Virus record (IMG/VR): IMGVR_UViG_3300006045_001056
Coordinates: 1,912-65,911 of that record
Strand: one strand, 5' to 3'
DNA from: a virus
DNA: 64,000 nt
The first letter of the stretch is position 1. Every line of letters starts with the position of its first letter. A model generated the notes under the pieces. The model ran no database searches. It was not told where the DNA came from and worked only from the letters and a program-made list of their open reading frames with translations. The translations under genes and the position numbers were made by a program. Of this stretch, positions 1,417 to 20,836 are shown one piece after another.

Positions 1417-4400
1417 TTAGACATCATTATCTTCGTCATCGCCGAAAATCTCGAAAAGGAAACGTTTCATTATCATCGCAATTTCTGCGCGGGTAGCCTC
1501 TCCCTGTGGAACTGTTGTGGTTTCGGTGCGACCGACAATCAGACCAACTGCAACTGCCCACTGCATTGCTTCGAGTGCCCAGTCGGAAATCTTGCCGGCA
1601 TCTTCATACTTAGACAAGTCTGCTCGTGCGCTTACATCAAATCCCATTATTTCAGCGTAACGGTAGAATACTGTCACGATCTGTTCACGGGTCAACAGTT
1701 CGCTTCCTTTGAATGTACCATCTGGGAAACCGTTCATCAATCCAGTTTCATATGCCCAGATTATTGCGTCTGAATACCATTCTCCGGCAATAACATCGCT
1801 GAAGGGAATTATTGCATCTTCGCTTACTTCCGGTTCGCCATTTAACCGGTAAAGTATTGTCGCCAGCATATAACGGTTCGTCACATCATGAGGTTTGAAT
1901 GTATTAGTGTTTCCTGAACCTATCATAATTCCCAATTGATTCATAATACGCGCTGCTTCAGCAAACCAGTCATCTTCTTTTACATCGGTATAAGGATTCA
2001 CGTACCCTTCTGCCGACGGTTCGTCACCAAATTTTGCATTACTTAACGGGGTATCTTTGTCGGAAATTTCCTCCAAATCACCAGAATCATCATCGTCAGA
2101 GGTATTATCAGAATCAATGCCTGAACCTGTTTCACCCGTTGTATCGCCATCGGTAGGAGGAGTGTATGGAGGAACATAAGAATCACCTGAACCGCTACTG
2201 GTATTAATCGTATATACAAATGTAGCGACATCGCTGACAATTTCGCCGTCTATTACAGCAACAGCCTTAATTGTTACGCTTTGATTAACTGCTATCGCTC
2301 CGGTGTATAAAATATTATTTATCGTTGGCTCTGTACCGTTAACAGTATAGTAGATTCCTACATTTGCAGCATTAACCGATAATGTTACGCTCTGCGTATT
2401 GGTATATGTTCCCGTTGCTGGATTCGCTGTAATAATATAGTTAATCTTCGTGAAATTCGCTGTTAACATCACGTTGTTGTCCGGCATTGTAAATTCTATT
2501 GATCTCGCCGTATTTTCCGAAAGAGTTATACCGATTGCTGTCCAGCCAGCGAAAGTATAGCCGTTATTCTCTGTTGCAGTGATGCTTACAGGTGTTCCTT
2601 CCGCATAACTTCCACTTGGCATACCTGATACTGTGCCGCCATCGCTTGAATTTATAGTTAATGTGAATATTGTAGGAATTACGGGGTTCACAGTGAAGTT
2701 CACATCAAAACTTGCACTAATTCCATTATCGCCGCTTAATGTTACAGTTACCGTATATGTTCCCTCCGTAAGTTCTGTTTTGGGAACCATATCGAAAGTA
2801 TCAAATTCACCGATAGCAATATCATCAATAGACGTTTTTGAAATTATAAACGCATTGCTGTCCTCACCGTTAAGGGTAATTATCAATTCGCCTGTCGGCT
2901 GATTGCCTGTATTTGTTATTGTGACGGTTTTCGCCGTATTATCTATGAAAGTATAAGCCGACACGTCAAGCGATATGCCATAGAATGGAGTAGGGATATC
3001 TGATGTTATTATAACTGTTGCCATACCGAATTTATTTGTATCTATAGTCGATGTTGCCGTAACTATCAGCGTATTTGCCGTTTCGTCTAAACCCACAGTT
3101 AAAAGACCGATATCAGAAATTGTCGTTTCGTCGCTCTCATTATCCGAAACGCTCCATATTACGGTTTGTTCAGGATTATTTTCGCCTTCAACAGTCGCTC
3201 CGAATTGATGTGTGCCGCCTTGCTGTACCTCAATATCCTGCGGAGACACAATGACGTTTGTGACGATTGCTGAGTCAAGTTCAAAGTTCGCAGTCATTGT
3301 AACTGAGCCTGCAGGCATATTGAATGATACGGAACTTGCAATAATATCAGAAATTGCTACGCCGCTTACAGTCCAATCTTTGAAATGATAACCTATATTT
3401 GCTGTCGCTGTTACGTTCATTTCTGTATTTTCTTCATAAGTGCCGCTTGGAGTTCCTGATATGTTGCCGCCTATGCCAGCCGATACATTAAACTCATATT
3501 TTTGAATATCCGGTACAGTATTCACAGTTAATGTAATAGAGGAGATTGCGGGAGCATTACTTCCATCCGACGGAGTTTCGGGATACGCTATGCCTAACGG
3601 ATTATAGCTTACAGTTAATGTATAAGTCCCTGCTACGAGCGTATCTAAATAACTTGCGCTGAAAATAATTTCATTTTCTGAAACTACATAATCTGTTAAT
3701 TCAATCAATGAATATTCGCCGTTTTTAATATTAGCTATAGTATTGCCGTTCAAATTAATTGTTGCGGATATATTATCTTCTGAGCCTTTTATATAATTAA
3801 TTTTTGTCGTTATTAAGACGCTATCTTCATAAAGCACGATACCTTCAGAATTTATATACGCTACATTATCAGAAGAATCAGACAATTTTACATAGATAAT
3901 ATATTTGTTTTTCGGATTAATGTCAAATGGGCTTGAATAGTCCATCCATTCCGCGTCGAGAGCCTGTATCTGTGCCAGCGTCAATTCCTCATCTGAAAGA
4001 TAATATTGAATTGTCGCGGGATTTCCATTTTTATCGCTGGCTGTAATGGTCACGGTTTGGGTATTCTTGCAGATCAATCCGAATGTTACAGTATTCCAAA
4101 AAGAGTTCCAGTAGTTCGTTTCTATACTTATTTCTCCCGTAGGTGGGGTAACATCTGGTTCGGCGTTCACTACTACGTTGAAATTGTCGGTTTCCGTTAT
4201 ATTATCCTCAGTATAACTGATTATAATAGTTTGTGTACCGATAATGTTAAGAACCGCACCATTTATCGGATTTGATGTAAAATCCGTAACTTCATTATAA
4301 CTGCTGTCGCTATAACTTGCGGTCACGACCATTCCTGTGAGGTCAAGTGCTTCGCCTACAGTATAAACCGTTTTGATTGGCGGTGTTGTCACACTGATAC

Positions 4401-7400
4401 TCTCTAATATTACCGGAATAGCATTTACCGTTATCGTAAAGCTATCGGTTTTCATTATTTCGTTTTCGATGTAGCTTACCGTAACTACTATTATATCTAC
4501 TATATCAAGAATTGTGCCATTTGTCGGTTCTGTCGAGAAGTCCGTAATTATTTTAGTATTTTCGTCACTATATACGGCGGTCACTATCATACCGGACAAG
4601 TCAAGTTCTTCGTCCACAGTATATACTGTTTTATCCGGTAATGTTGTTACAGATATGCTTTCCAGAACAATCGGCAGAGCGTTTACAACCACGGTAAAGC
4701 TGGTTGTTTCTGTTACATCGTTTTCAGTATAACTGACTATTATGGTTTGTGTGCCAATAATATCAAGAATCGTACCATTAACCGGATCAGTAGTATAATC
4801 TGCCACTTCTTCCGAACTTCCGTCGCTATATGCAATAATTACAACTATACCCGTAAGTTCAAGTGGTTCGCCTACGATATATTCCATTTTTTCAGGGAGT
4901 GTTGTTATATTGATTCCCTCTGATATAATCGGACTGGGATTTACTGTGATTGTAAAATCGACCGTTTTTATTATATCGTCTTCCGTATAGCTGACTGTGA
5001 TTGTCTTTATACCAATAGTATCAAGAATATCGCCATCATCAATGCTTGTATTAAAATCTGTTATTTCTTTTTCGCTGCCATCACTATATACAGCAGTTAT
5101 TATTATGCCTGCAAGATCAAAGTTATCTCCTACAATATATTCCATTTTATCAGGCAGAGAAAAAATTATTATATTATCTAATATAATAGGTTCGGGAAGC
5201 ACTTTTAAAGTAATTTCCGTGGTCGCCGGAATATCGTTTTCGTCAGCGTCCACATAATCTACGCCCAATGGATTATAATAGACTGTTAGCGTATATTCAC
5301 CTGTTTCAAGACTTTCAAGGTATTCTGCGTTGAATTTTATTGTACCATCGGAAACAATATAATCCGTTCCGTCCTCAAGCGTGACTTCGCCATTCATAAT
5401 CTTTTGGATTGTGTTGCCGTTGAGCAATACTTCGGCAATCTTATCAAGACCGAAGCCTTTGACAAAATTTATTTCGGTTGTCACCGCTTCGCTGTCGGTA
5501 TATAACACGATACCCGTTGAATTAATATATGTTACGTTTCCGAATTCATCGGTTATCTTAACATAGATTATAATTTTGCTATTCGGATTTATATTGAATG
5601 AATTTTTATAATTTATCCATTCTGTCGTGAATTCATTCAAATCGTCTAATGTCAACTCAGAATCCGAAAGATAATATTGAATCGTTATTTCATCTGTACT
5701 ATCAGAATCTGCGGTTAAAGATACGCTTTTCGTATCTTTATATATTAATCCGAATGTGACGGTATTCCAGAATGTATTCCAGAATGTATTCCAATAATTA
5801 GTTCCTATCACAATTTCCCCTGTTGGCAGGTTTGTAATCGAATCAATAATTTCATACTCAAACAGTCCGCAATTTTCGCAAGTTCTGGTTTTTATGCCTA
5901 CGGTGTTATTTGTTGGCTGAAACTCTGTCACCCATTCACCGAATATATGATTTCCGCAGGGTATCATTTCTTCAAGTTTAAGTAAATCTCCACAGACATC
6001 GCAGAGTATCGCTTTATATCCGACTGTATTCTCAGTCGGGGGAACTATAACAGTCCAATTATCGCTATGGCAGACATGAGGCTCAACCACATCAATTATA
6101 TAGGTATGTATATAGCCTTCGCTATTTTCAATATAGAGAATACCTCCCACACTATTTAAAGGCGTAATTTCAATTATACCAGAACCTTTAAATTCCAAAA
6201 CACCGTCTATATATGTGGCTGTTTCATTATTCGTTGATAATATGAAATCCGTACTTGATGTTGATGCGAAACTTGACATCCTTGAATCGCGTGTTGCGGC
6301 GGGTTCTATCCACGCTCTGCTTGTTGATTCTCCAGTTCCTTTAACATTTAATCGTGCTATATTATCTTCGACGACTTTAATTCTTTTTACAGCGTCTTGA
6401 TATCCTGTTATATCTTTAGCAAACGGAACGCCTAACACATCTCCGCTTATCTCGCCAAAAGAAGCTATTACTAAATCATATATGTATTGTCCAATATTAT
6501 CAACCCCGAAATAACGTGCTCCGACGGGGATTAATTTAATTGTATACGGAATTTCGGTTGTGGAACCGCTTAATGTTGTTACAGCAACATTTGTTACAAC
6601 AAAACGTATCGGAATATTAGCAATCGCAAAACGAATAGAATCATAAATATTAAATTTAGTTTCTTCCCCCTTGCCGAATTCCATATAATCAAGAATGTCT
6701 CTTAATCCCCAAATACCTTCTATTAATTCCCAACTCAAGCCACCACTGTCAACAATGGAAGATAACGAGTCTATCCAACCACCCAAGCTATTCAAAGCAT
6801 TTGCGGCGGCATTAAGCATTTTCAAAGAAGTCATCAAAGTTTCAATATTATCTACCATCCCGATTAGTTTATTAAGTTCATGTTGAATCATTTCGGAATG
6901 GAACATAATATTAGTAGTCATTTCAATTATTATTTTATCGCCCGGTTTAAATTCTTTTGCGCTGGCTGAAGTTCCTGATATTACGTGTTCTTCCGTTACT
7001 ACAGTGCCGTCAGAATAATGCGTTACTTGTCCTTGAAGTGCATAAATCGTATGGCTCACACCGTAAAGGGATTTGTGAGAGACATTTTCGAGTTCAATCC
7101 TAATTGTATAATCTTCTCCTTCAAAAGCGGAATCAGGGATATAGAAAGTCATATGCATCGCACTACCTGCATAAACTTTTATCGGGTCTTGAGCAACATA
7201 TTCATAACTGAATCGTTCGTCGAACGGCATCATTGTACCTTGCAAGGAAGCAGTTACGCTGTAAGTCCCTTCTTTATCACCACGTATATACCAATGAACA
7301 GATTTGCTGCCTCCTTCTTCAATATAATCTATTGTTTGAACGGCACTTTGCGCTCCATAGACCATATCCGCTAATGACAACCCATCTGGTAAAGTAAGTT

Positions 7401-10400
7401 CAGCCACACAATCCTCGATTGTGTCGGTAAGTGAATTATTAATAACGAGTAATTCTGCATCAAACATTTCTTTCAGCCAGCGAACTTCTCCGTAAATAAT
7501 TAAATAGAACCGTTCGGAAACAGGGAATATAGTAACATCAGTACCATCAGATAACCTCCATCCGAATCCGCCGCCGCCGGTTCCTCCGGGGCTATACCCG
7601 CCGTTATACCATAAAACCCCATCACTTCCTCTGCCACCGCCACCATCAGGACCGACACCTCCTAAGAAATCGCCCGTGCCATTAAAGAACGCTATTATAC
7701 TTAACACGTCAATTTCCGCTCTAAACGTGATTTCAACTTGATATCTATAAACATGCTGGTTACCCGGTGCGTTTGGATCAATCCCTGCTGCAATTATTTC
7801 ATCATAAGTCATTTCTCTGACAGTTAATTTTCCTTCTACCATTGGTTTCTCGCTCAAACCAATACGTGGGATTTCTTGAATGCCGGGTTTTATTGTTATT
7901 TTTAATTCACGTACTAAATAACCATTCGCATAAGCTGAGATTGTTAAGTTGCCAACGGGCAACACTTGACTTATTTTACCATTAGAGTCCGTTGATAATG
8001 TACATTCACCATCATTCGGTGTGGAGATAAATATTGATGCTCCACTGATAGGTTCAAGGGTTGTTGCATTTACAACTGTGAAATTAGCTAAACCATATTC
8101 ATTTGTTTGACTTATATCAATAAATATCTGCGGTAAATTTTCAGTTTCTTTTTCTCCGCAAATTTCGCATTCCCTGCTTTTTAATCCATTTGCAAGTACC
8201 GTTGCTTCTTTTTCGGTTGACCATTCACCGAATGTATGTCCCGTTGCTGGAATTATTTCAGATTCAAGTTCAACATTATCTATAATACAATAATTTTTCT
8301 TTAAACCATCTTCTATGCATGTCGCTTCTTTAACTATTATCCAATCGCCCGGCGTATGTCCAAGAGGCTCTAAAACTTCTATATAATTATATCCGCAGAT
8401 TGAACAAGTATTAATTGCAGATCCGCCGCGAGTACACGTTGGAGATGTTTCTATCGTCGTGAAAAATTCGTGATCGTGAGCATCAAGCAGGAAATACGGA
8501 TAACCATTATTTTCTGCCGCGTAGTGAGCCGCTGAACCGGAATAACAATATATTTTTAATTTCGGGCAGTTATTAAAACTATTTGCCGCAATAGATGTGA
8601 CACTATTTGGTATTAATATTGAAGTCAAGTTTATACATGACGCAAACGAATATGAGGAAAGTGTTGTTAATCCATCATTCAATACAATACTTGTTAACCC
8701 TGCACAACCATCAAACGCATTACTACCTATGGTTTTCAATCCTTCATTAAATATAATTAGCCTTAAACCGCTACAACCAGAATAAGCCGAGTTGCCAATA
8801 GATTCCATAGATTCAGGAAATTCTAAGACACTCAGACTTGAACATCCCATAAATGTAGATTGACTTATTGTTTTTAATCCTTCAACCAAATTAATTTCCA
8901 TAAGCCCCGTGCAGTTGGCAAAAGCATTATTACCGATGATAGCGAGTGTACTGGGTAGCACTACCGTCTGCAGGTTCGTACTACCACTAAACGTGTATGC
9001 TGGTATAGCAGTTACACCCTCTGGAACCGTGATACTTGTCAGCTTCGTACAACCATAGAACAATCGCGACACGTAGCCGATCGAACTGCTCACGTAAGTG
9101 TTGGCGACGTTCGTCAGACTACGAGGATAATTAATGCTCGTCAGGTTCGAGCAACCATCGAACACATAATATCCCATCGTCGTCACGCTGTCTGGCAACG
9201 TCAGGCTCACCAGTCCTGTACACCCACTGAATGCATAGTTATTTACCGTAGACAGAGCATTCGGCAGATTTACTGCAGCCAATCTTATGCACCCGTTGAA
9301 TGTGCTGTCGTTTATCGTTGTCAGCGTATTCGGCAGGCTCACCGTCGTCATGCCCGTACAGCCGCTGAACGCGCTGTTTCCCACTATTGTCAATCCCTCG
9401 TTCAAGGTCACTTCGCTCAGACTTGTACAGCCGTTGAATGTACTATTACCTATCGTTCTCAGACTGTTAACGAAATTTATGTTGCTCAACCCCGTGCAAT
9501 TAGCGAAAGCGTTGTTACCGATACTTTCGAGAGTGTTTGGCAAAACCACCGTCTGAAGGCTCGTGTTGCCGCTGAATGTATATGCTGGTATCGCCGTCAC
9601 ATCCTCCGGAACAGTAATGCTCGTCAGATTCGTACAGCCGTAAAATAGCCGAGACACGTAGCCGATCGAACTGCTCACATAGGTGTTGGCTACACTTGTC
9701 AGACTACGAGGATAGTTGATGCTCGTCAGGTTTGAACAGCCGTCGAACACGTAATATCCCATCGTCGTCACGCTGTCTGGCAACGTCAGACTCACCACAC
9801 CTGTACACCCACTGAATGCGTAGTTTCCTATAGTAGTTAATCCTTCATTCATGATCACTTCACGTAGGCTTATACAACCATTGAACATACTATCGTTTAA
9901 TGTTGTCAATGTACTTGGCAGACTCACTGTCGTCATTTCTGTACAGCCATTGAACACATTGTTACCGACTGATGTCAGCCCTTCGTTCAAGAACAATTCA
10001 CGCAAGCTCGTACAACCATTAAAGGCGTTGTTGCCGATGGTAGCGAGGGTACTGGGCAAAACTATCGTTTGTAGGTTCGTGCTGCCGCTGAATGTGTACG
10101 CCGGTGTTGTTGTCACACCCTCTGGTATCGTGATGCTCGTCAGTTTCGTACAGCCATAGAACAGGCGCGACACATAGCCGATTGAACTGCTCACATATGT
10201 ATTGGCGACACTCGTTAAGCTACGGGGGTAGTTGATGCTCGTCAGGTTTGAACAGCCGTCGAACACGTAATATCCCATCGTTGTCACGCTGTCCGGCAAC
10301 GTCAGACTCACCAAACCCGTACAACCGCTGAATGCATAACTTTCTATCGTTGTCAGCGTATTCGGTAGGCTCACCGTTGTCAACCCTGTGCAGCCGCTAA

Positions 10401-13400
10401 AGATGCTGCTCCCTATTGTTTTTACTGTATTCGGCAATTGTACGATTGTCAACGATCTACAATTAGTGAACGCATTGTTGCCAATCGTTTCCAATCCGTC
10501 GTTAAACCCGATATATGACAAGTTCGTACAGCCAGAAAAAACATTGCTTCCCATTATTTCTAACGTACTCGGCAAGACGACGCTTGTCAGAGTTGTTTTG
10601 TTTTGGAATGCGTTGTTGTCGATTGATTGTACTATATATCCGTTGATTTCCTTCGGTATTATTATAACCGTGTCGCTCCCTGTGTACCCCGTAATCGCAC
10701 AATATGTCCCATTGATGATACGGGTTGTAAATGATGAAGTCAGCGTTACCGTTCCATCAACGACCAATTCTACCACAACATCGGGAAGAACATTTCCGTT
10801 GGAAGAAGCGACGCAATTTATTGTATCAATGTTGATTTTGTAAAGCGGGTGATGGAATCTAACTTGATAAGCGTAGCCAACCCGCGCATTTGTACATACC
10901 CATTCACCAGAAGAGTTTGTGTAATATGTTCCGAGTATTTTTCCACTTAATGTATCATACAATGACACAGAAGCTCCACTAACCCCATTATTATTGGTAT
11001 CTACAACTTTTCCTGATACTGTGACACCTTCATAAACCAATGATTCTGTGGAAAATGGAATGCTGTTTGTATTCGCGTATGTTTCAGCATATGTATCTGA
11101 AATACCATGTATCGTAAGCCTTGAGCAATTTAGGAACACATTGTTGCCGATAGTTGCGGCATTTCGGTCAATCCATACTTTCTCCAACCCCGTGCAATTG
11201 GCAAAGGCGTTGTTGCCGATACTGTCGAGCGTGCTGGGCAGAATCACCGTTTGGATGTTTGTACTTCCACTAAATGTGTACATTGGTATAGCTGTCACGC
11301 CCTCTGGCACGACAATATTTGTCAATTTCGTACAACCGTAGAACAATCGCGACGCATAACCGATTGAGCTGCTAACATATGTGTTGGCTACGCTCGTTAA
11401 GCTACGAGGGTAATTGATGCTCGTCAGGTTTGAACAGCCGTCGAACACGTAATATCCCATCGTCGTCACGCTGTCTGGCAACATCAGACTCACCAACCCC
11501 GTACAACCGCTGAATGCGTAGTTACCCATCGTCGTCAATATATTCGGCAGGCTTACTGTCGTCAGTCCCGTACACCCACTGAATGCGCTATCGCTTAGTG
11601 CCATTAGCGTATTCGGCAAACTCACCTTAGTCATGCCCGTACAGCCGCTGAACGCGCTGTTTCCCACCGATGTTAATCCCTCGTTCAAGGTCACTTCGCG
11701 CAGGCTCGTACAGCCGTTGAATGCACTATTACCTATCGTTTTCAAATTGTCCACGAAATTTATATTACCCAATCCCGTGCAATTGGCGAAGGCGTTGTTG
11801 CCTATACTTTCGAGAGTGTTTGGCAAAACCACCGTTTGCAGGCTTGTACTGCCACTGAATGCGTATGCTGGTATCGCCGTCACTCCCTCTGGTACGACGA
11901 TACTTGTCAATTTCGGACAGCCGTAGAATAACCGCGACACGTAGCCGATCGAACTACTCACGTATGTGTTAGTGACGCTCGTCAGACTGCGAGGATAATT
12001 AATGCTCGTCAGGTTTGAACAGCCGTCGAACACGTAATATCCCATCGTCGTCACGCTGTCAGGTAACGTCAGACTCACCAATTCCATGCAACCACTGAAT
12101 GCGTAATTGCCTATAGTTGTTATCATACTCGGCAGGCTTACTGTCGTCAATCTTATGCAGCCACTGAATGTATTGTCGCTTATTGTCATCAGCGTATTCG
12201 GCAAATTCATCATCGTCATTCCAGTACAGCCATTGAAAGCACTATTACCCAACGATGTAAGTCCCTCGTTCAAAGTCACTTCACGCAAACTGGTACAGCC
12301 GTTGAATGCACTGTTGCCTATCGTCCTCAGACTGTCCACGAAATTCACGTTACTCAGCCCCGTGCAATTGGCGAAGGCGTTGTTGCCGATACTGTCGAGC
12401 GTGCTGGGCAGAATCACCGCCTGAAGGTTTGCGCTACCACTGAACGTGTAAGCCGGTATCGCCGTCACTCCCTCTGGTACGATGATACTTGTCAATTTCG
12501 GACAGCCGTAGAATAACCGAGATACATAGCCGATTGAACTGCTCACATATGTATTGGCTACACTCGTCAGGTTACGAGGGTAATTGACATTCGTCAGGTT
12601 CGAGCAGCCATCGAACACATAATATCCCATTGTTGTCACGCTATCGGGTAGTGTCAGGCTTACCAGTTCTGTACACCCGCTGAATGCGTAACTATCTATT
12701 GTTGTAAGTGTATTCGGCAGGCTTACCGTTGTTAACCCTGTGCAGCCGCTAAATATATTGCTTCCTATTGTTTTTACTGTATTCGATAATTGTACCATCG
12801 TCAACGACCTACAATTAGTGAACGCATTGTTGCCAATCGTTTCAAGTCCGTCGTTGAATCCGATATATGACAAGTTTGTACAACCGGAAAATACATTGCT
12901 TCCTATTGTTTCTAATGTATTTGGTAAGACTACGCTTGTCAGGGTTGTTTTATTTTGGAATGCGTTGTTGTCGATTGTCTGCACTATATAACCGTTGATC
13001 GCGTTTGGTATCACAATCACTATGTCGCTCCCCGTGTAACCAGTTATAGCACAGTATGTCCCATTAATGATACGGGTTGTGAATGATGATGGCGATGTTA
13101 CCGCTCCTCCAGCGATTAGTTCTGCTAAAATATCCGGCAATATATTACCATCAGAAGAGGCGACGCAACTTATTGTATCAATGTTAATTTTGTAAAGCGG
13201 GTGATGGAATCTAACTTGATAAGCGTAGCCAACCCGCGCATTCAGGCAAGCCCAAGTACCAGTAGAATCGGTATAATATGTACCGAGTATCTTTCCATTC
13301 AATATATCGTAAAGAGATACTGATACGCCGCTGATTTCGTTGTTATTAGTGTCTATCACTTTCCCTGATATTGTGACACCCTCATATACTAACGGCTCTG

Positions 13401-15531
13401 TGGAAAACGGAATACTATTTATATTTGCATATGTTTCAACGTATGTATCTGAAATACCATGTATCGTAAGCTGTGAACAATTTAGGAACACATTGTTGCC
13501 GATAGTTGCGGCATTTCGGTCAATCCATACTTTTTCCAACCCCGTGCAGTTGGCAAAAGCGTTATTGCCGATGGTAACGAGGGTACTCGGTAGAATCACC
13601 GTTTGCAGATTTGTACTTCCACTGAACGTGTACGCTGGTATCGCCGTCACGTCTTCTGATACCGTGATACTCGTCAGCTTCGTACAGCCGTAAAACAGCC
13701 GCGACGCATAACCGACTGAGCTGCTCACGTATGTATTGGCTACATTCGTCAGGCTACGGGGATAGTTGATGCTCGTAAGGTTCGAGCAGCCGTCAAACAC
13801 GTAATATCCCATCGTCGTCACGCTGTCAGGTAACGTCAGGCTTACCACCCCCGTACAACCGCTAAACGCATAATTGCCTATTGTCAGCAGGACGTTTGGC
13901 AAACTCACTATCGTCAGTCCTGTGCATCCGCTGAATGTGTTGTCGCTTATCGTTGTCAGCGTATTTGGTAGGCTCACCTTAGTCATGCCAGTGCAGCCAT
14001 TGAATGCACCGTTACCGACCGATGCAAGCCCTTCGTTCAAAGTCACTTCACGCAGGCTCGTACAACCATTGAACACATTACTTCCTATCGTCCTCAGACT
14101 GTCCACGAAATTCACGTTACTCAACCCCGTGCAATTGGCGAAAGCGTTGTTGCCGATGGTAGAAATGGTACTGGAGAGAACCACCGTTTGCAAGTTTGTA
14201 CTACCACTGAATGTGTACGCCGGTATCGTTGTCACTTCTTCTGGCACGACTATGTTTGTTAGTTTCGTACAACCGTAGAACAATCGCGACACGTAGCCGA
14301 TCGAACTACTCACGTATGTGTTGGCGACGCTCGTTAGGCTACGAGGATAATTAATGCTCGTAAGGTTCGAGCAACCGTCGAACACGTAATATCCCATCGT
14401 CGTCACGCTGTCAGGTAACGTCAGGCTCACCAGACTCGTACAACCACTGAATGCGTAGTTGCCCACCGTAGTCAACATACTCGGCAGGCTCACTGTTGTC
14501 AACCCTGTGCAACCATTAAATGTGCTGTCGCTTACTGTCATCAGTGTACTCGGTAGGCTCACCTTAGTCATGCCAGTACAGCCATTGAACGCGCTGTTAC
14601 CGACCGATGTAAGCCCTTCGTTTAAGGTCACCTCACGCAAACTGGTACAGCCGTTGAATGCACTGTTGCCTATCGTCCTCAGACTGTCCACGAAATTCAC
14701 GTTACTCAGCCCCGTGCAATTAGCGAAAGCGTTGTTGCCGATGGAATTGAGGGTGCTGGGTAGAACTATTATTTGCAAGTTCGTACTACCGCTGAATGTG
14801 TACGCCGGTATCGCCGTCACATCTTCTGGCACGACGATGTTCGTCAGATTCGTGCAGCCGTAAAACAGCCGCGACACATATCCAATCGAACTACTTACAT
14901 ATGTATTGGCAACGCTCGCCAAGTTGCGAGGGTAATTAATACTCGTCAGGTTTGAGCAACTATCGAACACGTAATATCCCATCATTGTCACGCTGTCAGG
15001 CAATGTCAAACTCACCAATCCTGTACAACCACTGAATGCGTAACTCTCTATCGTTGTAAGTGTGGTTGAAAAAACCATATTTTCTAAATTCGTGCAACCG
15101 GAAAATGCATTGCTTCCTATCGTTTTTATTGTGTTCGACATTTGTACCGTTTCCAACGCCCTACAATCAGCGAACGCATTGCTGCCGATGCTCACCAATC
15201 CGTCGTTGAACCCTATGTATGACAGATTCGAACAACCAGAAAACACGTTGCTACCCATCGTTTCAAGCGTATTCGGCAAAACCACGCTTGTCAGAGTGGT
15301 TTTGCTTTGGAAAGCTCCATTGTCAATTGTCTGCACTATGTACCCATTGACTTCGCTTGGAATCACGATGGCTGTGTCGCTCCCAGTATAACCTGTCACT
15401 GCACAGTATGTTCCGTTTAATATACGGATTGTAAAATCGGAAGTATCTGCAGCCATTACTATTAATCCAACTGGTAAATAAGTAATTAACATCGCCAAAA
15501 TCAACAATAAACTTAACAATTTCTTTTTCAT
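1417..15531 (-). CDS. Giant (4704 aa) BspA/TpLRR (LRR_5) cell-surface protein with carboxypeptidase-regulatory-like, Cys/His-rich, Ig-like, InlB-B-like and C-terminal SLH domains
   Basis: Signal peptide MKKKLLSLLLILAM; many xLPxxLxxIGxxAFxGCxxL repeats; PDKxxYxVGExLDLxG Ig-like repeats; three C-terminal SLH motifs (YTDVKEDDWF, FSDVIAGEWYSDAIIWA, ATRAEIAMIM). Confidence 0.92.
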   Translation of the reverse strand: MKKKLLSLLLILAMLITYLPVGLIVMAADTSDFTIRILNGTYCAVTGYTGSDTAIVIPSEVNGYIVQTIDNGAFQSKTTLTSVVLPNTLETMGSNVFSGCSNLSYIGFNDGLVSIGSNAFADCRALETVQMSNTIKTIGSNAFSGCTNLENMVFSTTLTTIESYAFSGCTGLVSLTLPDSVTMMGYYVFDSCSNLTSINYPRNLASVANTYVSSSIGYVSRLFYGCTNLTNIVVPEDVTAIPAYTFSGSTNLQIIVLPSTLNSIGNNAFANCTGLSNVNFVDSLRTIGNSAFNGCTSLREVTLNEGLTSVGNSAFNGCTGMTKVSLPSTLMTVSDSTFNGCTGLTTVSLPSMLTTVGNYAFSGCTSLVSLTLPDSVTTMGYYVFDGCSNLTSINYPRSLTSVANTYVSSSIGYVSRLFYGCTKLTNIVVPEEVTTIPAYTFSGSTNLQTVVLSSTISTIGNNAFANCTGLSNVNFVDSLRTIGSNVFNGCTSLREVTLNEGLASVGNGAFNGCTGMTKVSLPNTLTTISDNTFSGCTGLTIVSLPNVLLTIGNYAFSGCTGVVSLTLPDSVTTMGYYVFDGCSNLTSINYPRSLTNVANTYVSSSVGYASRLFYGCTKLTSITVSEDVTAIPAYTFSGSTNLQTVILPSTLVTIGNNAFANCTGLEKVWIDRNAATIGNNVFLNCSQLTIHGISDTYVETYANINSIPFSTEPLVYEGVTISGKVIDTNNNEISGVSVSLYDILNGKILGTYYTDSTGTWACLNARVGYAYQVRFHHPLYKINIDTISCVASSDGNILPDILAELIAGGAVTSPSSFTTRIINGTYCAITGYTGSDIVIVIPNAINGYIVQTIDNNAFQNKTTLTSVVLPNTLETIGSNVFSGCTNLSYIGFNDGLETIGNNAFTNCRSLTMVQLSNTVKTIGSNIFSGCTGLTTVSLPNTLTTIDSYAFSGCTELVSLTLPDSVTTMGYYVFDGCSNLTNVNYPRNLTSVANTYVSSSIGYVSRLFYGCPKLTSIIVPEGVTAIPAYTFSGSANLQAVILPSTLDSIGNNAFANCTGLSNVNFVDSLRTIGNSAFNGCTSLREVTLNEGLTSLGNSAFNGCTGMTMMNLPNTLMTISDNTFSGCIRLTTVSLPSMITTIGNYAFSGCMELVSLTLPDSVTTMGYYVFDGCSNLTSINYPRSLTSVTNTYVSSSIGYVSRLFYGCPKLTSIVVPEGVTAIPAYAFSGSTSLQTVVLPNTLESIGNNAFANCTGLGNINFVDNLKTIGNSAFNGCTSLREVTLNEGLTSVGNSAFSGCTGMTKVSLPNTLMALSDSAFSGCTGLTTVSLPNILTTMGNYAFSGCTGLVSLMLPDSVTTMGYYVFDGCSNLTSINYPRSLTSVANTYVSSSIGYASRLFYGCTKLTNIVVPEGVTAIPMYTFSGSTNIQTVILPSTLDSIGNNAFANCTGLEKVWIDRNAATIGNNVFLNCSRLTIHGISDTYAETYANTNSIPFSTESLVYEGVTVSGKVVDTNNNGVSGASVSLYDTLSGKILGTYYTNSSGEWVCTNARVGYAYQVRFHHPLYKINIDTINCVASSNGNVLPDVVVELVVDGTVTLTSSFTTRIINGTYCAITGYTGSDTVIIIPKEINGYIVQSIDNNAFQNKTTLTSVVLPSTLEIMGSNVFSGCTNLSYIGFNDGLETIGNNAFTNCRSLTIVQLPNTVKTIGSSIFSGCTGLTTVSLPNTLTTIESYAFSGCTGLVSLTLPDSVTTMGYYVFDGCSNLTSINYPRSLTSVANTYVSSSIGYVSRLFYGCTKLTSITIPEGVTTTPAYTFSGSTNLQTIVLPSTLATIGNNAFNGCTSLRELFLNEGLTSVGNNVFNGCTEMTTVSLPSTLTTLNDSMFNGCISLREVIMNEGLTTIGNYAFSGCTGVVSLTLPDSVTTMGYYVFDGCSNLTSINYPRSLTSVANTYVSSSIGYVSRLFYGCTNLTSITVPEDVTAIPAYTFSGNTSLQTVVLPNTLESIGNNAFANCTGLSNINFVNSLRTIGNSTFNGCTSLSEVTLNEGLTIVGNSAFSGCTGMTTVSLPNTLTTINDSTFNGCIRLAAVNLPNALSTVNNYAFSGCTGLVSLTLPDSVTTMGYYVFDGCSNLTSINYPRSLTNVANTYVSSSIGYVSRLFYGCTKLTSITVPEGVTAIPAYTFSGSTNLQTVVLPSTLAIIGNNAFANCTGLMEINLVEGLKTISQSTFMGCSSLSVLEFPESMESIGNSAYSGCSGLRLIIFNEGLKTIGSNAFDGCAGLTSIVLNDGLTTLSSYSFASCINLTSILIPNSVTSIAANSFNNCPKLKIYCYSGSAAHYAAENNGYPYFLLDAHDHEFFTTIETSPTCTRGGSAINTCSICGYNYIEVLEPLGHTPGDWIIVKEATCIEDGLKKNYCIIDNVELESEIIPATGHTFGEWSTEKEATVLANGLKSRECEICGEKETENLPQIFIDISQTNEYGLANFTVVNATTLEPISGASIFISTPNDGECTLSTDSNGKISQVLPVGNLTISAYANGYLVRELKITIKPGIQEIPRIGLSEKPMVEGKLTVREMTYDEIIAAGIDPNAPGNQHVYRYQVEITFRAEIDVLSIIAFFNGTGDFLGGVGPDGGGGRGSDGVLWYNGGYSPGGTGGGGFGWRLSDGTDVTIFPVSERFYLIIYGEVRWLKEMFDAELLVINNSLTDTIEDCVAELTLPDGLSLADMVYGAQSAVQTIDYIEEGGSKSVHWYIRGDKEGTYSVTASLQGTMMPFDERFSYEYVAQDPIKVYAGSAMHMTFYIPDSAFEGEDYTIRIELENVSHKSLYGVSHTIYALQGQVTHYSDGTVVTEEHVISGTSASAKEFKPGDKIIIEMTTNIMFHSEMIQHELNKLIGMVDNIETLMTSLKMLNAAANALNSLGGWIDSLSSIVDSGGLSWELIEGIWGLRDILDYMEFGKGEETKFNIYDSIRFAIANIPIRFVVTNVAVTTLSGSTTEIPYTIKLIPVGARYFGVDNIGQYIYDLVIASFGEISGDVLGVPFAKDITGYQDAVKRIKVVEDNIARLNVKGTGESTSRAWIEPAATRDSRMSSFASTSSTDFILSTNNETATYIDGVLEFKGSGIIEITPLNSVGGILYIENSEGYIHTYIIDVVEPHVCHSDNWTVIVPPTENTVGYKAILCDVCGDLLKLEEMIPCGNHIFGEWVTEFQPTNNTVGIKTRTCENCGLFEYEIIDSITNLPTGEIVIGTNYWNTFWNTFWNTVTFGLIYKDTKSVSLTADSDSTDEITIQYYLSDSELTLDDLNEFTTEWINYKNSFNINPNSKIIIYVKITDEFGNVTYINSTGIVLYTDSEAVTTEINFVKGFGLDKIAEVLLNGNTIQKIMNGEVTLEDGTDYIVSDGTIKFNAEYLESLETGEYTLTVYYNPLGVDYVDADENDIPATTEITLKVLPEPIILDNIIIFSLPDKMEYIVGDNFDLAGIIITAVYSDGSEKEITDFNTSIDDGDILDTIGIKTITVSYTEDDIIKTVDFTITVNPSPIISEGINITTLPEKMEYIVGEPLELTGIVVIIAYSDGSSEEVADYTTDPVNGTILDIIGTQTIIVSYTENDVTETTSFTVVVNALPIVLESISVTTLPDKTVYTVDEELDLSGMIVTAVYSDENTKIITDFSTEPTNGTILDIVDIIVVTVSYIENEIMKTDSFTITVNAIPVILESISVTTPPIKTVYTVGEALDLTGMVVTASYSDSSYNEVTDFTSNPINGAVLNIIGTQTIIISYTEDNITETDNFNVVVNAEPDVTPPTGEISIETNYWNSFWNTVTFGLICKNTQTVTITASDKNGNPATIQYYLSDEELTLAQIQALDAEWMDYSSPFDINPKNKYIIYVKLSDSSDNVAYINSEGIVLYEDSVLITTKINYIKGSEDNISATINLNGNTIANIKNGEYSLIELTDYVVSENEIIFSASYLDTLVAGTYTLTVSYNPLGIAYPETPSDGSNAPAISSITLTVNTVPDIQKYEFNVSAGIGGNISGTPSGTYEENTEMNVTATANIGYHFKDWTVSGVAISDIIASSVSFNMPAGSVTMTANFELDSAIVTNVIVSPQDIEVQQGGTHQFGATVEGENNPEQTVIWSVSDNESDETTISDIGLLTVGLDETANTLIVTATSTIDTNKFGMATVIITSDIPTPFYGISLDVSAYTFIDNTAKTVTITNTGNQPTGELIITLNGEDSNAFIISKTSIDDIAIGEFDTFDMVPKTELTEGTYTVTVTLSGDNGISASFDVNFTVNPVIPTIFTLTINSSDGGTVSGMPSGSYAEGTPVSITATENNGYTFAGWTAIGITLSENTARSIEFTMPDNNVMLTANFTKINYIITANPATGTYTNTQSVTLSVNAANVGIYYTVNGTEPTINNILYTGAIAVNQSVTIKAVAVIDGEIVSDVATFVYTINTSSGSGDSYVPPYTPPTDGDTTGETGSGIDSDNTSDDDDSGDLEEISDKDTPLSNAKFGDEPSAEGYVNPYTDVKEDDWFAEAARIMNQLGIMIGSGNTNTFKPHDVTNRYMLATILYRLNGEPEVSEDAIIPFSDVIAGEWYSDAIIWAYETGLMNGFPDGTFKGSELLTREQIVTVFYRYAEIMGFDVSARADLSKYEDAGKISDWALEAMQWAVAVGLIVGRTETTTVPQGEATRAEIAMIMKRFLFEIFGDDEDNDV
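8500..15440 (-). repeat. Nested tandem repeats: three 2352-bp blocks, each with three ~585-bp LRR units
   Basis: Marker (g/a)taatatcccat (MGYYVFD) at 14971, 14386, 13801 | 12619, 12034, 11449 | 10267, 9751, 9166. Spacing is 585 bp (one 516-bp exception); block period is 2352 bp. Outer limits approximate. Confidence 0.9.
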
Positions 15532-18602: not shown

Positions 18603-19085
18603 ATGCCAAAATTCAGAACACCGAAAAACAACCGCCCCACCTACATTTACCGCGACGCTTACGGGAGGAAAATCGCGGAACTGCGTCCGGGCGAAAACGG
18701 CGTAACCGAAGCGTATATCAACGCTCTCCACAGAGCGGACGACGACGAACAGAACGCCGCAAAAAAAGACAGTTATTACGGGGTATTTCACTATGAGCAA
18801 ATAAATGACGACGGTGAAGATTTTTCCGACGAAAAGCAACCTGATTTAGCCGATTATGCCGCCGACCCCGAAACGCAGTTTTTTGAAGCGTTGGAAACCG
18901 CCGAGCGGTCTGGCGCAATCAAAGCCGCTTGGGACAGCCTGCAACCGCAACAGCGCGACCTAATTTTAAAGAAACTGCTTAAACGCACGAACGTGAGTAT
19001 AGCCGACGAAGAAGGCGTTTCGGAAGCGGCTGTCAGAAACCGTCTCGCAAAAATCCAAAAGAAATTTGAAGAATTTCTAAAATAG
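18603..19085 (+). CDS. Phage sigma-70 region-4-like transcription factor
   Basis: AWDSLQPQQRDLI...SIADEEGVSEAAVRNRLAKI region-4 HTH. Confidence 0.8.
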   Translation: MPKFRTPKNNRPTYIYRDAYGRKIAELRPGENGVTEAYINALHRADDDEQNAAKKDSYYGVFHYEQINDDGEDFSDEKQPDLADYAADPETQFFEALETAERSGAIKAAWDSLQPQQRDLILKKLLKRTNVSIADEEGVSEAAVRNRLAKIQKKFEEFLK

Positions 19086-19159
19086 AGGGTTCGATTCGGC
19101 TTGTTTTTTCGGGGTAACGTAGAGGGAGATATACAAGCCCTCGGAAAGGAGCGAAAAAA

Positions 19160-19408
19160 ATGAGCCTCAAGCACAAAATTTGTATCAGCGTGAGCCGCCC
19201 GAATAACGAAACTTCTGAAATTATAAAGAGCGGCTCGCGCACGATACGAAGCAAACTATTAAAATTCCTGTTCGGAGAAAAAGTCGGAGTGTTAATCCTA
19301 ACGCCGGGCAGGACGGTAGAAACCGTGGAAATACGCGAAGTACCGGAAAGGGGTGACGACGGTGACGAAAACGCCGAACCAACGGCAATACCCACCGATG
19401 CCGGTTAA
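19160..19408 (+). CDS. Phage hypothetical protein
   Basis: Strong GAAAGGAG RBS; first gene of the replication operon. Confidence 0.7.
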   Translation: MSLKHKICISVSRPNNETSEIIKSGSRTIRSKLLKFLFGEKVGVLILTPGRTVETVEIREVPERGDDGDENAEPTAIPTDAG

Positions 19409-20836
19409 GGCGACGCCGTATAAACACCAGCGCGAGGCGTTTGAACTCGCCTGCAGATTGTTCGGTTTATCGGAAGGTGGTGACGCCCAATCCTCCATTA
19501 AGAGCCAAGGCGTGGCTCTCTTAATGGAGATGTAGCCATAGGAACGGGAAAAACCATCACGAGTATCGCCGTAGCGGGAGCGTTGTATCTATCAGAGAAA
19601 ATCCGGCGTATCCTTGTCGTCGCTCCGCTCTCCATCCTTGGCGTGTGGGAAGAGGAATTCGCTAAGTTCGCGGACTTTGATTATACCCTTGCCGTTTTAT
19701 CCGGCGTTGGCGCAAAAAAATCTGATACTCTTCGACATATGGACGGAACTCCCTTGCAGGTAGCCGTGGTAAATTACGAATCGGCATGGCGGTTAGAAAA
19801 TGATATTCTCGCATGGAATCCTGATCTTGTAATCGCCGATGAAGGACATAAAATAAAAACCTACAATATCTCCGCGTCAAAAGCCATGCACCGTATCGGC
19901 GCGAGAGCAACGTACCGTCTGCTGCTCACCGGCACCGTTATCACCAATAAAGCCATCGATGTGTTCAGCCAGTATAAATTCCTGAATCCGGCGATATTCG
20001 GCAACAGCTTTTATTCATTCAGGAATCGTTATTTCGACATGGTCGGTTACGGGAATCATACGCCGGTATTGAAACAATCTATGGAACAGGAATTAATGAA
20101 GCGACTCCACAGCATCGCGTTCCGGGCGACAAAAGCAGAGTGCCTCGACCTGCCAGAAACAACGGATATCATACGGTACGCGGAACTTGAACCGGCTGCC
20201 GCAAAAGTGTACCGCAATTTGGTGAAGGACAGTTATGCTGAACTTTCTAAAGGCGAAGTGACGGTAACAAATGTTTTGACGCGCCTGCTCCGGTTGTCGC
20301 AGCTTACGGGCGGATTCATCGGAGACGACGAAGGAAACACACCGGTTCGTATCAGCACGGCGAAACAAAACGCTCTGGAGGATATTATTGAAGAAGTTAT
20401 GCAGGAAGGCAAAAAACTGGTTATCATCGCCCGTTTTGTGCCGGAGATTATGGCTATCTGCAAACTGCTGGAAAAACGCGGCATCGGTTATTCCCGCATC
20501 ATGGGCGGCGTTAAAGACCGCGACGAACAGGTTTCGGCGTTCCAGAACAATCCGGATATACAGGTTTTTGTCGGGCAGATTGCCACGGCGGGACTCGGCA
20601 TCACGCTCACCGCCGCCGGCACGATGGTTTTCTATTCGATGGATTACAACATGAGTAATTTTGAGCAGGCAAAAGCGCGTATCCACCGCGTCGGTCAGAA
20701 AGAAAACTGCGCATATATTTACCTGACAGCCAAAGGCACAGTCGACGAAAAGATACTCAAAGTGTTACAAAATAAGGCAGACTTGGCGAAAACGCTGATA
20801 GATGATTACCGGCAAGGTCTGAACCCATTCCAATGA
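19362..20836 (+). CDS. SNF2-family helicase interrupted at Walker A (stop at 19533 plus -1 frame change); pseudogene or recoded
   Basis: N-part ...PYKHQREAF...GVALLMEM*; the other frame continues GTGKTITSIA...IADEGH...LTGT...QAKARIHRVGQ. Removing TAGCCATA (19533-19540) restores MEMGTGKT. Confidence 0.85.

Follow-up and report, generated by a model that had tools for sequence, protein, structure and literature searches.

A stop-first 8-nucleotide gap in the Walker A codons of a prophage SNF2 helicase gene is the remnant of a homing-endonuclease cassette and a candidate site of short-range translational bypass

Introduction

To our knowledge, programmed translational bypass was for decades represented by essentially one case, gene 60 of phage T4, which has since been joined only by direct homologues and a few candidates. 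In artificial E. coli constructs, peptidyl-tRNA reportedly detaches from the codon before a stop and pairs again with a similar codon slightly further on (+5, +6), so that a single polypeptide results (Weiss et al, 1987, cited in PMC10732093). The bypass insert of the T4 MobA element prevents self-cleavage by MobA, and in some phages the endonuclease was pseudogenised and then lost while the bypass was kept (Manning and Atkins, bioRxiv 10.1101/2022.08.31.505936; Bonocora et al, 2011, as cited there). A forward-driving role for the 5' stem-loop of gene 60 has also been discussed (bioRxiv 10.1101/2024.12.09.627546). Short bypasses of 7–10 nucleotides (nt) have been proposed, with mass-spectrometry support, in the phiHau3 terminase gene (PMC10732093), and in so-called fractured genes the parts of endonuclease-split genes are rejoined by split inteins (Dassa et al, 2009, PMC2677866). 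Here, we analyse a 64,000-nt stretch of viral DNA (positions 1,912–65,911 of IMG/VR record IMGVR_UViG_3300006045_001056; hereafter the window), in which the gene for an SNF2 helicase is interrupted, directly before its Walker A codons, by 8 nt that open with a stop codon. These 8 nt are what is left of the 3' end of a cassette encoding an HNH_3 homing endonuclease, which at one time entered the gene just upstream of the Walker A codons, and comparison with homologous genes suggests that ribosomes most probably hop over them. Our literature search found no paper on endonuclease-linked gaps in the Walker A codons of SNF2 genes.

Results

An 8-nt insert separates two intact parts of the helicase gene

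The upstream frame of the gene is open at 19353–19535 and ends in ..SQGVALLMEM*, and the downstream frame is open at 19502–20836, its conserved part opening with GTGKT. At the junction, the codons CTC TTA ATG GAG ATG are followed by TAGCCATA and then by GGA ACG GGA AAA ACC (Table 1). Positions 19530–19543 thus read ATG TAG CC ATA GGA, and the frame shifts by +2 across the insert. Excision of the 8 nt in silico joins LLMEM to GTGKT and reproduces the motif of ~100 homologues; in the 120 best homologous protein clusters (~77–85% identity), the full-length members (470–490 residues, ~80–85% identity) nearly all carry an uninterrupted ..ALLMEM-GTGKT. These observations bear out what a preliminary description of this DNA, made from its letters alone, had reported: an insert between MEM and GTGKT whose removal restores the motif, two otherwise intact halves, a stop right after the last ATG and a near-cognate ATA right before GGA.

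The downstream frame matches the Pfam domains SNF2-rel_dom (PF00176, 1.7e-29) and Helicase_C (PF00271, 2.1e-12), as well as ResIII, and corresponds to phrog_62 “DNA helicase”. With both domains and the sequences GTGKT, DEGH and QAKARIHRVGQ (motifs I, II and VI) present, the product is an SNF2-family (superfamily 2) DNA helicase.

Stop-first inserts recur at the same junction

Homologous loci were drawn from genomes, metagenomes and viral contigs, as a protein-seeded set complemented by a pattern search of viral contigs and 399 Clostridia genomes. Tabulating the nucleotides between MEM and GTGKT, as the preliminary description had proposed, showed that in the protein-seeded samples the junction is intact in 74 loci and interrupted at the same place in 14 besides the window. 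About a quarter of the homologous gene calls begin exactly at or just past the junction or carry an unrelated N-terminus. The 399-genome Clostridia sample contains the helicase in 14 genomes, and five of the six copies with at least 70% identity are interrupted.

At least 21 distinct inserts occupy this junction, with lengths of 4, 5, 6, 7, 8, 9 or 10 nt. Each of the 21 opens with TAG, TGA or TAA immediately after the last sense codon, which is either Glu (GAR), Met (ATG) or the first Gly of the motif (GGN). The length is a multiple of three in eight of the 21, near the chance value of one third, and the frame therefore does not matter. No stop-free in-frame insert was found among the ~90 protein-seeded loci.

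The insert of the window itself, TAGCCATA, is found unchanged at the same junction in L002/L143 (JGI 3300010049) and in L154 (IMG/VR 3300048598), which are separate assemblies, and a further locus (L138) carries TAGCCGGATA. The helicases of L002/L143 and L154 share 77–83% amino acid identity with that of the window. Synonymous sites among the window, L002 and L154 are saturated (proportion of synonymous differences 0.69–0.79) and the third codon positions flanking the insert differ, yet the 8 nt are the same. That a local co-conversion tract produced this identity was rejected, as the sequence surrounding the insert is not more similar than the remainder of the gene. Given conservation of the 8 nt in diverged homologues and the many stop-first variants at this one site, the insert is not a one-off lesion, and it is very probably a conserved, cassette-derived gap. 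An assembly or sequencing artefact has next to no probability, since the identical insert occurs in independent assemblies of other samples and related inserts occur in dozens of contigs, including that of an isolate genome (L175, GCA_000747665.1).

One otherwise intact homologue, P0056, reads MEMGTDKT, with the second Gly of Walker A replaced by Asp; either loss of activity in this allele or an error in sequencing might account for it.

Take-off and putative landing codons share at least two bases in every variant

In all 21 variants, as in the window, the triplet directly 5' of the resume codon shares at least two of three bases with the last sense codon before the stop (the take-off codon). 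It is also, 21 times out of 21, the first downstream triplet to match the take-off codon at two adjacent positions, and landing on it restores exactly MEMGTGKT every time. The take-off>landing pairs are GAG>GAG, GAA>GAC, ATG>ATA/ATC/TTG/CTG, GGT>GGC/GGT/GGA, GGC>GGC and GGA>GGA. Many variants have pairs that are cognate for one tRNA (GGT>GGC, GGC>GGC, GGA>GGA, GAG>GAG); the ATG>ATA pair of the window is matched at two of three bases.

Conventional frameshifting (−1 or +2 here, +1 elsewhere) or readthrough would instead add one to three residues between MEM and GTGKT. In L079:820-880, on a short contig and with a very strong hairpin, the take-off ATG is followed by a 7-nt insert, AAACCCG, that lacks a stop; +1 slippage is conceivable at the CCC-G site of its ..AAA CCC G GGC and would give two extra residues. 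In-frame variants could also in principle be read through. However, a different mechanism would be required for each gap length, all three stop codons are in use, the ATG-TAG of the window has no slippery site and the distance between the β-1 strand and the P-loop does not vary in ~90 intact homologous genes. We therefore regard frameshifting or readthrough as very improbable.

The same variants bear on the possibility of a split gene, in which ribosomes would stop at TAG and restart on the adjacent AUA, and two polypeptides (an N-terminal part of ~45–60 residues ending in LLMEM and the remainder) would assemble non-covalently, as do T4 gp39 and gp60. In variants with a GAR or ATG take-off codon, GGN is invariably preceded by a potential start codon (ATG, TTG, CTG, ATA or ATC), and in the window GGAG lies 8 nt 5' of AUA, a workable Shine-Dalgarno (SD) distance. 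AUA, on the other hand, serves very poorly as a start codon in bacteria. Among the in-frame 9-nt variants, TAG, TAA and TGA all occur, and in none of them does a start codon follow the stop; therefore, they can be explained neither by reinitiation nor by a single dedicated suppressor. In L164, the 10-nt variant likewise has no start codon between the stop and GTGKT. In G068 and G372, genomes of different families, the landing codon is AGC (Ser) at the position where Walker A needs Gly, and the 440-codon downstream frame is intact. A restart on this codon would yield STGKT and destroy Walker A; the intact frame is understandable only if the Gly is supplied by the take-off GGC and the landing codon stays undecoded.

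A hairpin directly precedes the take-off codon

Folding of the window RNA predicts a hairpin with an outer helix (19493–19500/19522–19529) and an inner helix (19501–19507/19513–19519). Its 3' arm consists of the L-L-M-E codons, and its last base lies directly before the take-off codon. Each gap allele folds a hairpin whose 3' arm is formed by the L-L-M-E-(M) codons and ends 0–2 nt before the take-off codon, so that among the three take-off codons the position of the hairpin shifts with the take-off codon. Gap alleles also have in common extra leader residues (x-I-S-x-x-x-G), and the codons of these form the 5' arm. Pairing is stronger in gap alleles than in naive alleles, which lack the gap (mean −14.8 vs −9.8 kcal/mol; Mann-Whitney p=1.5e-5, a value inflated by kinship), and it is weak in alleles that have the endonuclease described below but no gap.

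Covariation was counted for the named helix in an alignment restricted to alleles with AUG take-off. Across ten such alleles, 90% of the cells pair, vs 41–47% when the partners are slid. Pair 17-53, which lies opposite the synonymous third base of the Glu codon, is C-G in five sequences and U-A in five, and the covariation score was reached by none of 500 shuffles. RNAalifold on a MAFFT alignment of all 30 gap alleles returned no structure, the 5' arms being misaligned across classes, and an Rfam scan of window positions 19000–20000 found nothing. In a split gene this covarying hairpin would be left without a role.

The insert is the 3' end of an HNH_3 endonuclease cassette

At 17 loci, an open reading frame (ORF) of 150–200 codons lies within the helicase gene directly 5' of the junction. 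These ORFs encode zinc-finger motifs and an HNH_3 domain (PF13392, E 4e-10 to 1.5e-14) and match HNH endonuclease PHROGs; a sequence search of the PDB with the endonuclease returned a zinc-finger hit only. From its 5' end, the arrangement is the N-terminal part of the helicase (..PYKHQ..FGL), an SD-like sequence, RRGGNGGNGRN, serving the ATG of the endonuclease, and the endonuclease gene. At the 3' end follow a second copy of the SD-like sequence with an ATG, a leader of 15–17 codons, the stop-first insert of 4–10 nt and GTGKT with the rest of the helicase. The leader, for example M-N-I-S-S-K-G-A-A-L-L-M-E-M-(G), re-encodes the β-1 strand.

The right boundary of the element was located in L175, from a Thermoanaerobacterium saccharolyticum isolate. 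This allele and the naive ones most closely related to it hardly differ in their flanks, between which L175 carries a ~560-nt cassette; the right end of the cassette is the insert itself. The SD-like sequence is present in two copies, at about −621 and −71, in L173, L167 and L136, in a single copy at −62 to −67 in gap alleles lacking the endonuclease and not at all in naive alleles. On a tree of the helicases, gap and naive alleles are interleaved, as is expected for a homing element.

The window retains the extended leader (..EGGDAQSSIKSQG..; ..EGGDAQSSIKSQGVALLMEM vs naive ..GGDALSQGVAYLMEM), an SD-like repeat at −67 and the gap, all three of which naive alleles lack. Its lone SD-like copy occupies the position of the downstream repeat. 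With the queries used, an endonuclease of the HNH_3 cassette type was found neither in the window (tblastn) nor in its 91%-complete genome. We therefore read the window allele as a derivative that lost the endonuclease and not as a full member of the cassette group. Loss would probably have occurred by recombination between the two SD-like repeats, re-fusing the N-terminal part to the leader and keeping the gap and hairpin. To judge from T4 MobA, the endonuclease target in the highly conserved Walker A DNA is probably disrupted by the insert, which would thereby shield its carrier.

The cassette-bearing relatives also bear on a split gene, because their helicase is already split and its C-terminal piece is made from its own SD sequence and ATG. 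These alleles would, however, need a free peptide of 15–17 residues to supply β-1. The leader peptide ..G-x-A-L-L-M-E-M is kept through synonymous changes, with G-A-L-L-M-E-M conserved, also in alleles in which it would be a separate 16-mer if it were not joined to the rest of the helicase. Taking these observations together with the start-codon evidence, we consider a split gene unlikely.

The cultured T. saccharolyticum isolate (L175:2339-4377; GCA_000747665.1, BBKT01000033.1) carries a cassette with a 5-nt gap (GAA TAG AC ATG), and its endonuclease gene is frameshifted and broken into several frames. The deposited 458-residue “DEAD/DEAH box helicase” of this locus opens with MINVKRKRF.., which is read in the wrong frame; this misannotation results from the gap. 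A different arrangement is seen in a distant helicase lineage (53% identity; L102, L103, L105 and L086, junction near 2504 or 1229), in which a related HNH gene splits the helicase and there is neither gap nor hairpin. The C-terminal piece there has its own ATG start and reads across the junction (M-P-V-S-K-S-V-A-I-L-A-E-M-GTGKT).

Both halves of the gene are under purifying selection

The reading frames that flank the gap are under purifying selection. More than 30 gap alleles have full-length downstream frames. The ratio of nonsynonymous to synonymous substitution rates (dN/dS) is 0.14 (L003/L004) and 0.11 (L157/L159) in two closely related pairs with a common gap, 0.06 for the window vs L002 and 0.06–0.15 for gap alleles overall, similar to the 0.06–0.10 of naive pairs. 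Large clades consist almost solely of gap alleles, at dS >1.5 and dN/dS 0.07–0.15.

These values are difficult to reconcile with a non-functional scar, that is, with a gap that kills the helicase in a defective prophage and persists as a dead remnant of endonuclease invasion or was tolerated after past immunity. No endonuclease was found in the genome of the window, so nothing was found that would make the gap useful now, and the interleaving of gap and naive alleles means that a number of gaps could be of recent origin. Decay of such an allele is seen in L181 (G228:C58:1-3783), where the endonuclease accompanies a TAGCCGGATA-like gap whose TAG has been replaced (CCAGCCGGATA) and the downstream helicase frame contains stops; this locus is an example of true pseudogenisation among related alleles. 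In the window, by contrast, the upstream frame and the 431-codon downstream frame have no further stops, and the insert is unchanged in three lineages across saturated synonymous divergence. Compensatory changes keep the hairpin in alleles without the endonuclease, whole clades of gap alleles have persisted under the constraint just given and the helicase is the sole SNF2 helicase of the prophage replication module. We conclude that a dead scar is improbable.

Genomic context

Besides the helicase, the replication module comprises a sigma-like gene and genes for a DUF7307 protein, a family A DNA polymerase and a D5-type primase. The features of the interrupted gene are listed in Table 1; the true start of its upstream part may be the ATG at 19398. 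A blastn search of INPHARED phage DNA gave no match to the window, and the helicase is absent from the two other genomes of the same family and genus that were examined. In L002, the closest gap-bearing relative, a LAGLIDADG_2-like ORF (L002:10359-10964) lies directly 3' of the DNA polymerase gene and is a second homing-endonuclease-type gene in the replication module. Upstream of the prophage region, the minus strand of the window carries a single ORF of 4704 codons (1417–15531) that adjoins a tRNA-Leu(GAG) gene (1214–1298).

Table 1. Positions of the parts of the interrupted helicase gene in the window.
Feature	Position	Strand	Basis
Helicase upstream part (N-terminal region, PYKHQ motif, β-1 strand GVALLMEM; ends with the take-off codon)	19353..19532	+	Alignment to N-termini of full-length homologues
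SD-like GAAGGTGGTGAC (codons E-G-G-D), single surviving copy of a direct repeat	19473..19484	+	Repeat comparison with cassette-bearing relatives
Predicted 5' RNA hairpin	19493..19529	+	Folds, comparison with naive alleles, covariation
Take-off codon ATG, last Met of LLMEM	19530..19532	+	
8-nt coding gap TAGCCATA: TAG stop (19533-35), spacer CC, putative landing codon ATA (19538-40)	19533..19540	+	Identical in L002/L143 and L154
Helicase downstream part, resume codon GGA (Walker A GTGKT) to stop, 431 codons, motifs II-VI intact	19541..20836	+	Pfam, dN/dS, PHROG match

Discussion

The junction anatomy, its recurrence and the selection on both halves point to expression of a full-length helicase by ribosomes that hop over the gap, a reading to which we assign a probability of roughly 0.6. 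A ribosome holding peptidyl-tRNA(Met) on AUG 19530 would meet UAG in its A site. The upstream hairpin must be melted when the take-off codon is in the P site and could re-form behind the ribosome; it is the kind of forward driver discussed for the 5' stem-loop of gene 60. Its re-formation would favour forward movement, upon which the tRNA would unpair and then re-pair 8 nt downstream on AUA 19538. Decoding would resume at GGA 19541 and give a full-length helicase with ...LLMEM-GTGKT.... The preliminary description had offered two options, recoding of the gene 60 hopping type or a one-off inactivating lesion. Our comparison supports the first and refutes the second, since identical or comparable stop-first inserts occur in numerous diverged homologues, with intact flanking frames that are under selection. 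That the insert belongs to an HNH homing-endonuclease cassette, as in T4 mobA/gene 60, was absent from that description.

Several points weigh against hopping. Unprogrammed stop-hops in E. coli run at ~1% or less, and the efficiency here could be low. ATG take-off codons land only on near-cognates (ATA, ATC, TTG, CTG) and never on ATG, and these same codons are possible weak starts; moreover, take-off and landing codons could share two bases in part because of how the insert arose, by microhomology, and not through selection. Gap alleles are scattered among naive ones on the tree, so that some may be recent gains, for which intact frames alone are little evidence. In the window, where the endonuclease was not found in the genome, the gap would have no present protective role. 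The stop-less insert of L079 and the decayed frame of L181 belong on the same side.

Three further candidates were rejected. Reassignment of the stop codon does not account for the gene, as reading TAG as sense gives no GTGKT in the upstream frame, relatives use all three stops and the only tRNA of the window is Leu-GAG. Nothing in the data supports a tiny intron or excision at the DNA level, and we know of no mechanism of either kind that removes 4–10 nt. A fractured gene with a split intein was dismissed because only 8 nt (in relatives, a 15–17-codon leader) separate the conserved residues and no intein domain is among the Pfam hits.

Beyond the window, we lean slightly towards the view that stop-first gaps of 4–10 nt, derived from HNH cassettes and kept after loss of the endonuclease, make up a large family of natural sites in phage helicase genes at which ribosomes hop efficiently over a short range, driven by a hairpin re-forming behind the ribosome and tolerating near-cognate landing. 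If so, they would constitute a second class of programmed translational bypass, simpler in mechanism and much more widespread than T4 gene 60, and selfish endonucleases would routinely carry bypass signals that allow them to disrupt their own DNA targets while the host protein is still made. The locus also provides a second, independent example of a homing endonuclease accompanied by a presumably untranslated insert within conserved codons that are its presumed target, which suggests a general strategy of selfish elements. The variants, at least 21 in number, with three take-off codons and prospective hops of +4 to +10, amount to natural mutations of the stop codon, gap length, landing codon and 5' hairpin; the rules of tRNA take-off and landing are therefore directly testable, and the T. 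saccharolyticum carrier of L175 is a usable experimental system. There is also a consequence for annotation. Gene callers mark these helicases as truncated, frameshifted or wrongly started, as in the T. saccharolyticum record, and many “broken” phage replication genes may be functional.

Among described systems, fractured genes (PMC2677866) resemble this locus in that a free-standing homing-endonuclease gene divides a conserved, often replication-related, gene into two ORFs. They differ in their intein halves and protein splicing, neither of which occurs here, and in the window only 8 nt, and no ORF, interrupt the gene. The stop-hopping constructs of E. coli are artificial and of low efficiency, whereas the sites described here are natural and conserved and have a covarying hairpin. 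The phiHau3 terminase (PMC10732093) is similar in having frame-breaking inserts of 7 and 10 nt at conserved junctions of an essential phage gene, a slow-decoding A-site codon at take-off and a landing codon adjoining the resume codon, with upstream structure and an SD-like sequence proposed as stimulators. Its trigger, however, is the rare UUA codon (bldA tRNA, host developmental state) and not a stop codon, no homing endonuclease is involved and only a few phages carry that bypass.

The closest parallel is T4 mobA with genes 39 and 60. In both systems, an HNH homing endonuclease splits a conserved replication gene, a stop-first insert that is untranslated in T4, and would be so in the SNF2 genes, interrupts highly conserved codons a short way downstream, the putative landing codon resembles the take-off codon and a 5' stem-loop is present. 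In both, some lineages without the endonuclease keep the gap, and insertion at the same site has occurred repeatedly and independently. The host gene, in contrast, is an SNF2 helicase (Walker A) here and a topoisomerase in T4, the carriers are prophages of Clostridia and relatives and not T4-like myoviruses, and the endonuclease here is of the HNH_3 family with a zinc-finger N-terminus. The gap of 4–10 nt, against ~50 nt in T4, is too short to contain a take-off hairpin or an internal SD sequence, and its landing codons are often only near-cognate. Whereas bypass and cleavage protection are properties of the T4 element itself, for the SNF2 genes we infer both from sequence comparison and analogy with it.

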